From assembly GCF_046105845.1 (NCBI RefSeq), contig NZ_CP151004.1: 64,000 nt of DNA; one strand, given 5' to 3'. The stretch comes from Escherichia coli. Its GTDB lineage: Bacteria; Pseudomonadota; Gammaproteobacteria; Enterobacterales; Enterobacteriaceae. Below, in pieces: positions 48,565 through 54,047 of this stretch; positions within the stretch are counted from its first letter, which is position 1; the number at the start of each line of letters is the position of its first letter. Both the position numbers and the translations under genes were made by a program. The notes under the pieces are model-generated. The model was not told where the DNA came from and searched no databases. It worked only from the letters and a program-made list of their open reading frames with translations.

Positions 48565-48650
48565 TGTGTTTACTCCTGATTAGCTATGTGTATTTGGCGA
48601 TGCCTGATATGTCATCGCGGCAAAACGCGTCCATTGAATATAGCCAATAT

Positions 48651-49607
48651 TTAAACCACCCGATCCAGCCCCAACATGCCGCGAGCCTGAATGAAACAGA
48701 GCAGCAACGTTCCCCATAAGGCCATCGTCAGGTAGGGACTTATACCGAGAATATTGAAGCCGCTTTCAATAATTTGCAGAAGAAACAGCGCCAGCACCAT
48801 ACCAATTATCCGCCCGCTGCCGCCGTCCGGATTAACCCCGCCGAGTACTGCCGCGAGGATTGACACCAGCAAGTACGATTCGCCATAAGAGGCCTTAGCC
48901 GAGTTGAGTTTCGACATCATCAAAAATGCCGCTACCGCACAAAGCAAGGCGGAAATGACATACACCCATATCAGCACCCGACGAGTGTTAATACCGGAGT
49001 AAAGTGTTGCTCGTTCGTTAGAACCAATCAGATAAATGGATTTACCGAGCGGCGTTTTCTCCAGCAATATCCACAGCCCCAGCGCCACTGCGGCAAACAA
49101 CCACATCGGTAGCGGAATACCGAACCATTGCGCATGATTCAACCACAGCACCCATGAGGGATAATTGGCAATGGCGCTACCACCTGTCACCAGAATATTT
49201 ATCCCTTTGAGCAACGTCATCATCCCAAGCGTTGCAAGAATTGGCGACACTCGAATACCAGCAATCAATACGCCGTTACATAAACCGATTATCACCGCCG
49301 CGCCAGCGCCCGCCAGTAACGTAGCGACAACCGTAGCAATACCCGGTGGATACTGAGTCGCCACCCACGCCATCACCAGTGAACAGGCGTTAGCAGTGGC
49401 AATAATTGACAAGTTAATGCCACCGCAAAGCATGGTCACCGCCATAGCCAACGCCAGAATGCCCAGCACGGGCATTTGCGAAGCGACGGACTGGAAATTA
49501 CTTATCGACCAGAAAATCTCCGGCATAGTAATGCTGAACGCGGCAACCGTTAGCACCAGCAGGCCGATCAAGTAAAACTCAACGTTATTACGCCACGATT
49601 TTTTCAT
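48651..49607 (-). CDS. Sugar-type ABC transporter permease (second of two)
   Basis: Polytopic membrane protein; ATG 49607 overlaps the stop of the upstream permease (ATGA). Confidence 0.8.
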   Translation of the reverse strand: MKKSWRNNVEFYLIGLLVLTVAAFSITMPEIFWSISNFQSVASQMPVLGILALAMAVTMLCGGINLSIIATANACSLVMAWVATQYPPGIATVVATLLAGAGAAVIIGLCNGVLIAGIRVSPILATLGMMTLLKGINILVTGGSAIANYPSWVLWLNHAQWFGIPLPMWLFAAVALGLWILLEKTPLGKSIYLIGSNERATLYSGINTRRVLIWVYVISALLCAVAAFLMMSKLNSAKASYGESYLLVSILAAVLGGVNPDGGSGRIIGMVLALFLLQIIESGFNILGISPYLTMALWGTLLLCFIQARGMLGLDRVV

Positions 49608-50575
49608 AGCAGACTCCGGTTCTGATGCTGACTCCACGCCGTGGCGCTAATGCTGGCAACGATGATGATGCCTGTGATCAATGTTTGCCAGTAAGACGAG
49701 ACTCCCAATAAATTTAGCCCGTTTTGCATCACTGCCAACAACACCACGCCGAGCAAAGTACCGGTTAACGTGCCGCGCCCGCCGAGCAAACTAGTGCCGC
49801 CAAGCACCACCGCAGCCAGTACTGTCAGCTCATAACCCAGAAGAGAATCGGGGGCGACAGTCATCACCGTCCACGACTGCACTACACCCGCAGCGCCAGA
49901 CATCAATCCCATATAGCCATAGACGAAAAGTTGCAGTTTCAGCACGCTAAAGCCGATGCGACTGGCTGATTCACGATTCCCGCCAAGGGCATAAATTTTG
50001 CGCCCTACACTGGTGAAATTCATGATAAACGCTGTCAGCAGCACCACCGTAATCATGGCGATCAGCGGCAGACCAAGGCCATAGTCATAGCCGTCAGCAT
50101 CGGTGTACTTGAACAACATTATCCCCTGCTCAAACCACGGCGGAAAGTCGTACAGCCACACACCTTTACTCAACCATAACAGCAGGCCATAGAAAATATT
50201 CAGCGTCGAAATGGTGATGATGATAGACGGCACCCGTAGGCGATTAACCAGTAAGGCGTTTATTAAGCCAAGTAAAATGCCGATGCCGCCCGCCAGGGCA
50301 AACGCGACAGCAAAGTTGCCACCAATTTTTTGCAGCAACAGCACCATGCCGTATTGCGCAATGATGGTCATTGCCGGAAACGAAATATCAATCCCACCGG
50401 AAATTAACACCACAAACAAACCACAGGCGAGAATAGTCAACATGGCATAGTTATTGGCGAGATCGTACAAATTACCGAATGTCAGAAACTCGTCGCTGCG
50501 CCAGGCAAGGCCGACAAACAGCCCCACAATCAGTAATGCCAGCCAGAATTCATGGCGTTTTTTCAGTTCAGCCAT
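49604..50575 (-). CDS. Sugar-type ABC transporter permease (first of two)
   Basis: 323-aa polytopic membrane protein; start overlaps the ATPase stop. Confidence 0.8.
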   Translation of the reverse strand: MAELKKRHEFWLALLIVGLFVGLAWRSDEFLTFGNLYDLANNYAMLTILACGLFVVLISGGIDISFPAMTIIAQYGMVLLLQKIGGNFAVAFALAGGIGILLGLINALLVNRLRVPSIIITISTLNIFYGLLLWLSKGVWLYDFPPWFEQGIMLFKYTDADGYDYGLGLPLIAMITVVLLTAFIMNFTSVGRKIYALGGNRESASRIGFSVLKLQLFVYGYMGLMSGAAGVVQSWTVMTVAPDSLLGYELTVLAAVVLGGTSLLGGRGTLTGTLLGVVLLAVMQNGLNLLGVSSYWQTLITGIIIVASISATAWSQHQNRSLL

Positions 50576-52052
50576 TTACCACCTCCGCAATTCTGGCCTG
50601 AGAACTGCTGTCAGGCAGGAAGCTATGGGTGATCTGACCTTTTTGCATTACCAAAATCCGGTGGCTTTGATACCACGCTTCTTCAATTTCATCGCAGATC
50701 ATCAATACCGCAATGCCATGAGCCGCCAGATCGCTGATAATGCCGTATATTCCTGCTTTGTTGGCGATATCAACACCGACTGTCGGGCTATCGAGAATCA
50801 ACAGTCGTGGCCCAATCGCCAGCCATTTGGCGATCGATACTCGCTGCGCGTTACCCCCGGAAAGCGTATTCACCGGGAGATGTGGGTCAGAGACTTTGAT
50901 GGTCAATGCCTTGATTAGCCTGTCCACCAGGTCACGCACTTTAGCTTCACTCAGAAAGCCGAAGCGATCTTTTACCTTGTGAAAAACAGTGCTAATGATG
51001 TTGTCTTCAATAGATTGCGCCATCACCAAACCGCGCGACATGCGATCTTCCGAAACATAACCAATACCGTGGCGGATGGCGTCCTGGTTACTATGCAGTG
51101 TAACCGGCTGACCGTTGATGAGGATCTCACCAGCATCCGGTCGGGTCATACCAAACAGACTCAGACATAATTCCGTGCGCCCCGCACCAAGCAGGCCAAC
51201 AATCGACACCACTTCGCCCGCTTCCACCCGCAAGTTAATATTTTGATATTCCCCCTGACGACTTAAATTACGCACCTCCAGCACCCGGGTGCTGGATTTT
51301 CCCTGCCACAACTCTCGCACCTGATATTCAAACTCCTGGCCGGTCATCAGGAAACCGAGTTGTTTTGTGGTCATCTCTGCAGCCGGAAAGGTCCCGACCA
51401 GCTCACCATCTTTCAACACTGAAATACGGTCGGAAACTTCCATCACTTCTTCCAGACGATGACTGACGAAGACCACGCAGATCCCGCGTTCCCGCAATTG
51501 ATGCACCACCTGTAATAACCCTTGCACTTCCTGATGGGTCAGCGAAGCGGTGGGTTCATCCATCACGATCAACCGTGCGTCCTGCGCCAGTGCACGGCAA
51601 ATTGCCACCAGCTGACAGCGGGCAATTGAAAGCTCAGAAACGAGCGTATCCAGTGGCAATGTGACGTTAATACTGGTCATTGCCGCCTGCGCCACCTCAC
51701 GCAGACGACGGCGGTTAACAAACAGACCGTGGTGATAGTGATTCACGGCGATATTCTCCCAGACACTCAGGTTAGGAAATAAAGAGAGGTCCTGATAAAT
51801 CACCTGAATCCCCTGCGCCACCGAAGCGGCGGGTGTCAGCTTTGACCAGTTTTTCCCACCAAGCGTAATTTCCGCCCCCTCATCCGGGCGATAAACACCG
51901 GACATAATTTTAATCAACGTCGATTTACCACAGCCGTTTTGCCCGGCAAGGCAGTGCACCTCACCCGACATAAAGTCGAGAGAAACATCGCGCAGCGCTC
52001 GCGTGGCATGAAACGTTTTGTTGATATGACGAAGGGAAAGGAAGGTTTCCAT
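50568..52052 (-). CDS. Sugar-type ABC transporter ATP-binding protein with duplicated nucleotide-binding domains
   Basis: Walker A GQNGCGKST in the first half and LSGGNAQR signature in the second; two-NBD architecture typical of ribose/AI-2-type importers; ATG 52052 preferred over the TTG at 52067. Confidence 0.85.
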   Translation of the reverse strand: METFLSLRHINKTFHATRALRDVSLDFMSGEVHCLAGQNGCGKSTLIKIMSGVYRPDEGAEITLGGKNWSKLTPAASVAQGIQVIYQDLSLFPNLSVWENIAVNHYHHGLFVNRRRLREVAQAAMTSINVTLPLDTLVSELSIARCQLVAICRALAQDARLIVMDEPTASLTHQEVQGLLQVVHQLRERGICVVFVSHRLEEVMEVSDRISVLKDGELVGTFPAAEMTTKQLGFLMTGQEFEYQVRELWQGKSSTRVLEVRNLSRQGEYQNINLRVEAGEVVSIVGLLGAGRTELCLSLFGMTRPDAGEILINGQPVTLHSNQDAIRHGIGYVSEDRMSRGLVMAQSIEDNIISTVFHKVKDRFGFLSEAKVRDLVDRLIKALTIKVSDPHLPVNTLSGGNAQRVSIAKWLAIGPRLLILDSPTVGVDIANKAGIYGIISDLAAHGIAVLMICDEIEEAWYQSHRILVMQKGQITHSFLPDSSSQARIAEVVNG

Positions 52053-52074
52053 AGCATCCCCTGGCAATAAGAAT

Positions 52075-52090
52075 CGGGGCTTTCGCCCCG
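52075..52090 (-). other. Perfect hairpin between the binding-protein and ATPase genes
   Basis: CGGGGC-TTTC-GCCCCG. Confidence 0.4.
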
Positions 52091-52100
52091 AAGAAATGGA

Positions 52101-53087
52101 TTAATAAAGTGAGTCGATATTGTCTTTGTTGACCAGTAATACCTTATGGAAACGGATAATTCGCTTATCCATATCTACGTCGGCCTTACCGAGATTCTCC
52201 ATTTCTAATCCAGGTTTGATCTCTTCACCCTTCAGCAACGTGCTGGCGACGGCCGCGAGTGCGTAACCTGCAGAGGCCGGATCGTAAGTAATCCCTTCAG
52301 TGATATCACCACTTTTAATCAGTGATGCCGCCTGTGAAGGGATCATCATGCCATAGACTGCGACTTTATTTTTCGCCCGTTTCTCTTTCACTGCACGTCC
52401 CGCGCCAATCGGACCGTTTGAACCAAAGGAGACAACCGCTTTCAAGTCAGGATAGGTTTTCATCAGGTCCAGTGTGGTTCGACGTGAGTCATCCACACTC
52501 TCGGCAACCGGCATGCGGCGGGTAACTTCATGCATATCCGGGTAATGCTCTTTCTGGTATTTCACCAGCAAGTCAGCCCATAAGTTATGCTGCGGCACGG
52601 TCAAACTACCCACGTAAATCACATAGCCGCCCTTGCCACCCATGCGTTTCGCCATATGCTCAACATATTCAGCGGCAAATTTTTCGTTATCAATGATTTC
52701 GATATCCCAGTTAGCACTTGGCTGACCGGGGGATTCGTTGGTCAGAACCACAATTCCGGCATCTCGCGCTTTTTTGAATACCGGTTCCAGCACGTTGGCA
52801 TCGTTTGGCACAATTGTAATTGCATTAACCTTACGGGCGATTAAATCCTCAATGATTTTAACCTGTTGCGGAGCATCAGTACTTGAAGGCCCCACCTGTG
52901 ACGCATTAACACCAAAGGCTTTACCCGCCTCGACCACACCTTCGCCCATGCGATTAAACCAAGGCATACCATCGACTTTAGAGATATTCACCACGACTTT
53001 TTCCGCTGCCTGGAGCGGCGCAGAAATTAGCGCAGCGCCTAATAACAGCGAAGACACCATATTGATAACAAAACGTTTATTCATCAT
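52101..53087 (-). CDS. Periplasmic substrate-binding protein (type 1 sugar-binding fold, RbsB/LsrB-like)
   Basis: 328 aa; signal peptide ending LQAAEK; GAGG RBS; C-terminal ...KVLLVNKDNIDSLY resembles the LsrB C-terminus as I recall it. Confidence 0.8.
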   Translation of the reverse strand: MMNKRFVINMVSSLLLGAALISAPLQAAEKVVVNISKVDGMPWFNRMGEGVVEAGKAFGVNASQVGPSSTDAPQQVKIIEDLIARKVNAITIVPNDANVLEPVFKKARDAGIVVLTNESPGQPSANWDIEIIDNEKFAAEYVEHMAKRMGGKGGYVIYVGSLTVPQHNLWADLLVKYQKEHYPDMHEVTRRMPVAESVDDSRRTTLDLMKTYPDLKAVVSFGSNGPIGAGRAVKEKRAKNKVAVYGMMIPSQAASLIKSGDITEGITYDPASAGYALAAVASTLLKGEEIKPGLEMENLGKADVDMDKRIIRFHKVLLVNKDNIDSLY

Positions 53088-53244
53088 TTCAGCCTCATTG
53101 CAGGGTAGTCAGGAAGTGTTCGCCCAAATTAGCGCGCTGGAGAGAATAAGAATTTTCGAATATTTTTATGCAGAATAAACAGCCCTATTTCAGGCAGCTA
53201 TTAAAAATTTGGTTATAAATATGGACAAAACGGGCAGAAACAAT

Positions 53245-53337: not shown

Positions 53338-53748
53338 CTACACAACGTCAATAAGGGCATATTCTTCAAAGATAACGTCCATTTCGGGTGAATAGTATCC
53401 TTCTGCCTGGAAAAAACGACGGTGTTCATTACGCCAATATTCAAGACTGAGGTCACCTTCACCTTCCTTACGGGCAAGCTCCGCGGTGACATCAGAAAAG
53501 CGCAGTAAATGCAGGCCAATCACTCTGATAACACAGACAGGCTCACCACGGCTATTTTCTACAATCTTATACTCACCAATCATCGGAAATGCGTTGTCTT
53601 CAATACATCCCGCCAGCGAACCACAGGAAGCTGTTTTAACACCAGTCGCAATCAACGTTGCGAGGTGATCGGCCAACGCTGCTGAATCGCCAAAAGTACA
53701 AAAGGAAGCATGGGGATATTTTTGTGAGATTTTTTCTTTTATGGTCAT
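53338..53748 (-). CDS. Small ASCH-like domain protein (putative)
   Basis: 136 aa from ATG 53748 (MTIKEKISQKYP...); a G-x-K-T motif (GVKTASCG) and overall size resemble ASCH/YqfB-type proteins; weak RBS. Confidence 0.4.
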   Translation of the reverse strand: MTIKEKISQKYPHASFCTFGDSAALADHLATLIATGVKTASCGSLAGCIEDNAFPMIGEYKIVENSRGEPVCVIRVIGLHLLRFSDVTAELARKEGEGDLSLEYWRNEHRRFFQAEGYYSPEMDVIFEEYALIDVV

Positions 53749-54047
53749 GAGAATATTTTCGCGATTACGGAAAAACAAATCACATCTTAATTACTGTTGA
53801 TAACCATCAGCAAGAGTATCATTGGTTTTTCGATACTGAATCTTTTTTATCCGAAGCAGGTCACATTTATGGCCTGATAAATACCTTTGTTAAAACTCAC
53901 TTTTGTGTATTTCTCTCAAATAATCCCCTGGAAATTATGCCGGGAGATTATAAAGTTCAGGATCATTCATTAGCAAACCATTGCTGCCCCACTCCCTGGG
54001 GCTTTAAATCTCTTACGATTCACCATTGCAGGCGTTTCAAATGCGTA

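Follow-up and report, generated by a model that had tools for sequence, protein, structure and literature searches.

Does the short hairpin between the first two genes of an accessory sugar ABC operon of Escherichia coli set how much binding protein is made relative to the rest of the transporter, and does it act on transcription or on mRNA decay? It is the obvious candidate for setting the subunit ratio of this system (Aau). An earlier note on this DNA had suggested that it could be a partial terminator or an RNase barrier. Here the window (the whole 64-kb stretch of DNA analysed) is compared with orthologous operons and with published data on related systems.

The aau operon and its expression

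The operon consists of four transporter genes.

53087-52101, - strand (52101..53087): periplasmic substrate-binding protein gene, Z0415, 328 aa, Pfam PF13407
52052-50568, - strand (50568..52052): ABC ATPase gene, Z0416-7, with tandem ATP-binding domains, 494 aa from ATG 52052
50575-49604, - strand (49604..50575): permease gene 1, Z0418, overlapping the end of the ATPase gene
49607-48651, - strand (48651..49607): permease gene 2, Z0419, last of the operon

Together with an upstream ASCH-domain gene (53338-53778, - strand, just upstream of the aau promoter region), these genes are inserted between yahJ and yahK, and of 5426 complete E. coli genomes, 2219 have the yahJ-yahK insert. Among published primers, the one for RT-qPCR of Z0415 has an exact match at 53038-53059, a cloning primer matches the start of permease 1 (MAELKKRHEF) and a reverse cloning primer the end of permease 2 (PMC11127945). 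Because the Z0415 RT-qPCR and cloning primers match, the operon is identified as the published Aau system, Z0415-Z0419 of O-island 17. The published Z0417 RT-qPCR primer has no match in the window at ≤ 2 mismatches.

Aau (accessory L-arabinose uptake) is induced only by L-arabinose and depends on AraC, promoter activity being abolished in a strain lacking araC; EHEC requires it to compete in the mouse gut, where it confers a 10- to 100-fold advantage (PMC11127945). Arabinose induces Z0415 26.5-fold, Z0417 43-fold and Z0418 7-fold (PMC11127945). As the downstream genes are co-induced from a single AraC-dependent promoter, transcription must read through past the hairpin, which rules out a full terminator (PMC11127945). 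The fold change of Z0417 is greater than that of Z0415, but fold-induction does not report absolute mRNA ratios (PMC11127945), and the ratio of binding-protein to ATPase mRNA is not derivable from the published RNA-seq, which gives fold changes and no absolute levels.

An AraC half-site-like direct repeat with 21-bp spacing (TGCCCGTTTTGTCCATA, TTTA, TAACCAAATTTTTAATA; 53199-53236, - strand) sits approximately 110 to 150 nt upstream of the binding-protein ATG, in keeping with the AraC dependence reported for the Aau promoter. Half-site matches by themselves are no more frequent in the window than chance predicts (36 versus 42.8 expected). At the other end of the operon, no terminator-like hairpin was found between the last permease gene and yahK (48565-48650, - strand). 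The best stem there is weak and lacks a U tract, so aau transcription may continue into yahK.

The ATPase gene is intact in the window (494 aa), and tblastn alignments of orthologues start at residue 1 of the form beginning at ATG 52052 in most loci. The RefSeq start in TW14359 and others is likewise the ATG 48 nt past the binding-protein stop. In the RefSeq annotation of strain 19KM1831 the ATPase begins at a later ATG (MSGEV..., 467 aa; window 51969-52052; 9149 versus 9230 in the E. coli locus L001), and so lacks the first 27 residues, which lie just ahead of the Walker A motif. As the orthologue alignments cover the longer form from its first residue, this shorter annotation is probably wrong.

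A G-C hairpin in the 48-nt spacer

The spacer between the binding-protein and ATPase genes is the sole junction in the operon without gene overlap; the permease gene junctions further downstream overlap. It contains the following features.

52053-52100, - strand: spacer between the binding-protein and ATPase genes, 48 nt (ORF coordinates)
52074-52091, - strand: intercistronic stem-loop U-CGGGGC-GAAA-GCCCCG-A, with its core at 52075-52090
52066-52073, - strand: U-rich tail UUCUUAUU, directly 3' of the stem, 6 U in 8
52057-52062, - strand: Shine-Dalgarno sequence AGGGGA of the ATPase gene, 11 nt past the hairpin and 4 nt before the ATG

Direct reading of the + strand gives CGGGGC-TTTC-GCCCCG at 52075-52090, exactly as the earlier note had described it, and CGGGGC-GAAA-GCCCCG on the coding (-) strand. 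The spacer length of 48 nt given there agrees with the ORF coordinates, and the same gap is present in the RefSeq annotation of O157:H7 TW14359. The U-rich run that it had placed after the hairpin on the coding strand is indeed there, as UUCUUAUU, although the U tract is interrupted. As mRNA, the spacer has the sequence UCCAUUUCU-U-CGGGGC-GAAA-GCCCCG-A-UUCUUAUUGCC-AGGGGA-UGCU-AUG, the binding-protein stop TAA being at 52103-52101 and the ATPase ATG at 52052-52050.

The stem has six G-C pairs (52090-52085 with 52080-75) closed by a GNRA tetraloop, and U52091 and A52074 can form a seventh, optional closing pair. Folded alone, the hairpin has a dG of -14.3 kcal/mol with seven pairs and -12.4 with six, and its stem is the centroid structure of the region. 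It begins 9 to 10 nt past the stop codon of the binding-protein gene, the first of the operon, which is just outside a terminating ribosome. Because the stem ends 11 nt before the Shine-Dalgarno sequence of the ATPase gene, the ATPase is presumably initiated independently and not by coupling. The Shine-Dalgarno motif CCAGGGGAUGC is common to the orthologues of Klebsiella, Franconibacter and Symbiopectobacterium.

Several known kinds of element were considered and rejected. REP/BIME elements are about 35 nt long, carry the REP consensus and occur in many copies per genome. The aau hairpin is too short (16 to 18 nt), lacks the REP consensus and is single copy, a 66-nt query occurring once per genome in 2217 genomes and once in the window. 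An RNase III site would need roughly 20 bp, for which a 6- to 7-bp stem appears far too short. A terminator acting on the opposite strand was discarded, the + strand tail being AAGAAAUGG. No Rfam 15 family reaches its gathering score over the hairpin (best RF02866, 16.4 bits versus 48, E = 1.9), and a scan of 51700-52500 at a permissive E-value gave noise only.

The window alone does not separate the hairpin from chance

Judged from the window alone, the hairpin does not exceed chance expectation. Across the 64 kb of the window, perfect 6-bp hairpins made of G and C only, with 3- to 8-nt loops, occur 4 times, versus 7.8 ± 3.5 in shuffles; 7 to 15 of 100 dinucleotide shuffles of the E. coli spacer yield an equally stable hairpin; and the fold of the 76-nt region has a z-score of -1.08. 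In a scan for terminator-like sites, the surrounding 10 kb held 9 versus 11.5 expected, the hairpin being the top match on the - strand.

Variation within E. coli does not help. The hairpin is invariant among the sampled alleles except in one strain with a 1-nt deletion, and the common polymorphism of the spacer is C/T at position -3 of the ATG. This invariance is uninformative, however, since E. coli alleles are 98 to 100% identical to each other and so too alike to show selection. The exceptional strain (E. coli Z1323PEC0010, L083) has lost the 5' C of the stem, which leaves a 5-bp GGGGC/GCCCC helix and offers a naturally occurring case in which the effect of stem strength could be seen.

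Figures of this kind, together with the shortest stem of the 79 compared below, and one of the weakest, are what would be seen if the E. coli hairpin were a chance palindrome or a decaying remnant without present function. As in-window tests fail to separate it from chance, the case for the hairpin rests on comparison with other genomes.

A hairpin is present at the same junction in all 79 orthologous operons compared

Scanning one genome per species gave 80 loci with orthologous binding-protein genes, and in all 80 the ATPase gene follows on the same strand. Hairpins were compared at the 79 loci where the start of the ATPase gene is complete (78 of the 80, plus the E. coli locus L001), which cover Enterobacterales, Pasteurellaceae, Vibrionaceae, Aeromonas and Ferrimonas. 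For each spacer the best local hairpin was computed and compared with 100 shuffles.

A stable spacer hairpin (dG ≤ -10 kcal/mol) was found in 79 of 79 loci, a count that overstates the number of independent observations because the orthologues share phylogeny. Median dG was -16.8 versus a shuffle mean of -7.6, and in 52 of the 79 loci at most 5 of 100 shuffles matched the native hairpin. The stems themselves differ: approximately 20 unrelated stem sequences occur across clades, among them the following.

E. coli: CGGGGC / GCCCCG
Franconibacter (stem-loop): CGGGGCGG-GCGA-CCGCCCCG
Aeromonas: GGUGGCGCCA / UGGCGCCACC
Yersinia: GCAGAGCCGG...CCGGCUCUGC
Providencia and Budvicia: CGUCCUUGCC...GGCAAGGACG
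Pasteurellaceae: AUAUGGGUUC...GAACCCAUAU
Pasteurellaceae (Rodentibacter): CCGGGUUC...GAACCCGG
Vibrio, Photobacterium and Morganella: GGGC(A/G)G...C(U/C)GCCC

Within clades, substitutions preserve pairing. In the Yersinia stems 95.8% of cells are paired and 5 pairs have changed on both sides, a covariation score reached by 0 of 500 shuffles; in those of Vibrio, Photobacterium and Morganella 96.1% are paired, with 3 pairs changed on both sides. When the partner columns were slid in the Yersinia and the Vibrionaceae and Morganella alignments, pairing fell to 30 to 70%. Comparison of sequences thus shows a hairpin conserved in structure, not in sequence, and apparently selected.

A chance palindrome or decaying remnant in E. 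coli consequently looks improbable. A hairpin occupies the same junction in 79 of 79 orthologues and in the K-12 paralogues described below, and Klebsiella, Franconibacter and Symbiopectobacterium, nearest relatives of the E. coli copy, keep the outer CGGGGC...GCCCCG and differ only in that their stems are extended inward by paired bases.

Some loci stand out. A 4.7-kb contig labelled as a Bacteroidales metagenome-assembled genome (L002, SFEK01000152.1) has a spacer identical to that of E. coli, and its binding protein and ATPase show 99.6 to 99.7% amino-acid identity to those of E. coli; the contig probably comes from E. coli and was misassigned in binning. The spacers of Budvicia aquatica (L027, spacer 146-268) and Yersinia aldovae (L034, spacer 66-189) share an insert of approximately 125 nt with 77% identity, which matches an ERIC/IRU consensus (74 to 80% over 54 nt). 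In the Y. aldovae locus the best hairpin was not the one usual in Yersinia past the stop codon. A second common insertion, of approximately 100 to 200 nt, lies downstream of the hairpin in four other Yersinia loci (L025, L030, L031 and L032), where the hairpin stays 14 nt past the stop codon. Four Vibrio/Photobacterium loci (L070, L078, L080 and L081) have extra sequence upstream of the hairpin, which is 18 to 19 nt from the ATG. Two Atlantibacter loci (L010 and L015), with spacers of 104 to 106 nt, contain two tandem strong hairpins, each with a dG of approximately -20 to -27 kcal/mol.

The position of the hairpin bears on a translational role, in which it would break coupling or lower 30S loading, or its GCCCC 3' arm would pair with the GGGG of the Shine-Dalgarno sequence, so that ATPase synthesis would be set low with RNA levels unchanged. 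The median distance from stop codon to stem is 14 nt and that from stem to ATG 22 nt; the latter is narrowly distributed (16 to 33 nt in short spacers), and the long-spacer Vibrio loci just mentioned keep the hairpin close to the ATG and away from the stop, as such a role would predict. Furthermore, the minimum-free-energy fold in E. coli pairs CAUUUCU with GGGGAUG around the hairpin. This extra pairing, however, has an ensemble frequency of 0.05, depends on G-U pairs and is absent from the centroid. The idea that it sequesters the Shine-Dalgarno sequence was rejected, as it has no counterpart in other clades, whose Shine-Dalgarno sequences vary without matching complementarity. The Yersinia insertions also separate hairpin and ATG while leaving the hairpin at the stop codon. 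A translational role is thus very unlikely.

Stem and U tail: terminator or barrier

The stem has so far been treated alone, but an intrinsic terminator also needs its U tract. The E. coli copy has the G+C-rich stem-loop of such a terminator (six G-C pairs and one U-A pair, with a 4-nt loop), and a leaky intrinsic (Rho-independent) terminator could be the main mechanism in E. coli, with partial release at UUCUUAUU and the rest of the polymerases reading through. U tails were counted in two ways: with stems trimmed to G-C pairs, and as a sliding U-maximum that credits U residues paired into the base of the stem, which covers those paired with upstream A residues in Pasteurellaceae stems.

By the sliding window, a count of 6 or more U in 8 close to the stem end is reached by only 3 of the 79 orthologous hairpins: the E. 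coli-type loci L001 and L002 and one Silvania locus. The E. coli tail, with 6 U in 8, is the highest of the 79. By comparison, of 47 strong hairpins past the last permease gene of the same loci, 15 attain that value, and many of these are canonical terminators (a stem and then UUUUUU). The U-maxima of intercistronic and operon-end hairpins do not differ significantly as a whole (Mann-Whitney P = 0.17), the difference being confined to the upper tail. With stems trimmed to G-C pairs, the mean number of U residues in the first 8 nt is 3.2 versus approximately 2.2 expected from spacer composition.

The d'Aubenton-Carafa-type score d, the formula of which is reportedly that of d'Aubenton-Carafa 1990, is above 0 in only 3 to 5 of the 79 loci. 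The E. coli hairpin scores +13 if the U-A pair is counted (7-bp stem) and -10 if it is left out (6-bp stem).

The terminator features (stem plus U tract) are thus not conserved in the orthologues, while the stem alone is present in all. Since the stem is kept in 79 of 79 loci and the U tail in 3 of 79, selection seems to have kept the stem and not the stem with its U tract. Termination cannot then be the conserved function, as 76 of the 79 hairpins lack a comparable tail, and an RNase barrier is favoured for that role. The aau hairpin has the structural marks of a 3' protective stem-loop, namely placement past the first gene, conservation in orthologues and compensatory changes. The kind of element proposed in the earlier note has therefore held up, given the 79 orthologues, the K-12 paralogues and the data on mgl; of its two options, the RNase barrier is supported as the conserved role, and a partial terminator is possible in E. 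coli, whose copy has the U-rich tail that would allow some leaky termination.

How far termination goes in E. coli itself is a separate matter. There the stem, tetraloop and 6 U in 8 form the top terminator-like match on the - strand with a positive d for the 7-bp stem, the documented read-through (PMC11127945) fits partial termination, and internal stem-loops of Clostridia give 21 to 96% termination in reporter constructs in spite of U-poor tails (PMC9045158). Termination rather than decay could therefore dominate with so U-rich a tail. Against this, the U tract is interrupted, d becomes negative when the U-A pair is left out, terminator-like matches in the region are not above shuffle expectation, and the mglB hairpin has a similar tail and yet belongs to a set of protective structures reported to be without the U tract needed for Rho-independent termination (PMC5927463). 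That leaky termination is the main mechanism in E. coli is therefore a credible but rather doubtful proposition.

A proposed mechanism

We consider it somewhat better than an even chance (roughly 0.55) that the hairpin is a 3'-end protective stem-loop, by which a binding-protein-only mRNA would outlast the ATPase-permease part of the aau transcript. The full transcript starts from the promoter upstream of the binding-protein gene, as the published co-induction shows, and its distal part would be lost when an endonuclease cuts downstream of the hairpin. The 3'-to-5' exonucleases PNPase and RNase II would, if malE-malF and mglB-mglA are a guide, be halted by the GNRA-capped G-C stem, so that the binding-protein message would survive and stay translated. 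On this analysis, 3' ends should form at the hairpin and Z0415 mRNA should be in excess. In E. coli some RNA polymerases probably also stop in the UUCUUAUU tail, so that leaky intrinsic termination at the acquired U-rich tail may contribute to the same 3' end. The exonuclease barrier would be the conserved core function and leaky termination an addition specific to E. coli.

A hairpin in this position might instead protect a 5' end. After cleavage by RNase E upstream of it, it would stabilize the ATPase-permease mRNA; it lies close to the ribosome-binding site of the ATPase gene, and 5' protective structures downstream of RNase E sites are described where a middle or distal gene is stabilized (PMC5927463). 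However, in the ABC operons that Dar and Sorek examined it is reported to be invariably the binding-protein gene that is stabilized, and the mapped end in the paralogous mglB-mglA is a 3' end at the hairpin (PMC5927463). Only 9 nt separate stop codon and stem, and we regard 5' stabilization as most improbable.

A further proposal is a translation-gated attenuator, in which an ancestral protective hairpin gained its U-rich tail in E. coli. As the stem is only 9 to 10 nt past the stop, a ribosome that follows RNA polymerase closely and pauses at the UAA would sit over its 5' arm and so prevent termination, which would take place when transcription is uncoupled. The ratio of Aau binding protein to transporter would then not be fixed and would track transcription-translation coupling and hence growth state in the gut. 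We think this unlikely.

Comparison with known systems

The protective stem-loop proposed here has well-studied counterparts, and the aau hairpin adds an example and not a concept, as the principle has been known since malEFG. The malE-malF structure lies past the first, binding-protein gene, as in aau, and its stem-loops block 3'-to-5' exonucleases, which leads to an excess of binding-protein mRNA and protein (Newbury et al. 1987, via PMC5927463). The mal element is a REP/BIME repeated throughout the genome, whereas the aau hairpin occurs once per genome and is without REP consensus. Dar and Sorek found that 3' ends of stabilized segments sit just past stable hairpins without U tracts, and the stabilized gene is the binding-protein gene in malEFG and in four other ABC transport operons named in their main text (PMC5927463).

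Internal stem-loops past binding-protein genes also set the ratio of binding protein to translocator in cellulolytic Clostridia (Wu et al. 2022, PMC9045158). They resemble aau in lying in the spacer past the binding-protein gene, and their tails are often U-poor. They differ in their Gram-positive hosts, longer stems (dG -10 to -38) and termination assigned by reporter constructs; in most aau orthologues the U tail is absent.

The paralogous operons of K-12 are closer. The araF-araG spacer has a 10-bp hairpin, CCCCUCUGCA-UGA-UGCAGAGGGG, without a U tract, and a comparable hairpin is found in the xylF-xylG spacer; that of ytfQ-ytfR contains true REP elements. Like aau, araF-araG belongs to the AraC regulon, has arabinose as substrate and carries its hairpin in the binding-protein/ATPase spacer; it differs in its longer stem, the lack of a U-rich tail and an unrelated sequence.

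The closest likeness is to mglB-mglA of K-12. Both are monosaccharide ABC importers with a PF13407 binding protein, a tandem-domain ATPase and the same gene order, and both have a G-C hairpin approximately 10 nt past the stop codon with a U-rich but interrupted tail behind it (UUAUUGUA in mgl versus UUCUUAUU in aau). The mgl stem is longer and more stable (9 bp, dG -17.7, versus 6 to 7 bp and -12 to -14 in aau), and the sequences are unrelated. A Term-seq 3' end lies directly after GGGCGCAGU-CUAUU-ACUGCGCCC-UUAUU in mglB-mglA, and mglB exceeds mglA in half-life by a ratio of 2.65 and in steady-state mRNA by one of 3.04 (PMC5927463).

The orthologue set, in which approximately 20 unrelated stems, most of them lacking a U tract, occupy a single operon junction, amounts to a clean experiment of nature. 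It supports the view that RNA barriers made of structure only, and not terminators, are the conserved device by which proteobacterial sugar ABC operons obtain an excess of binding protein.
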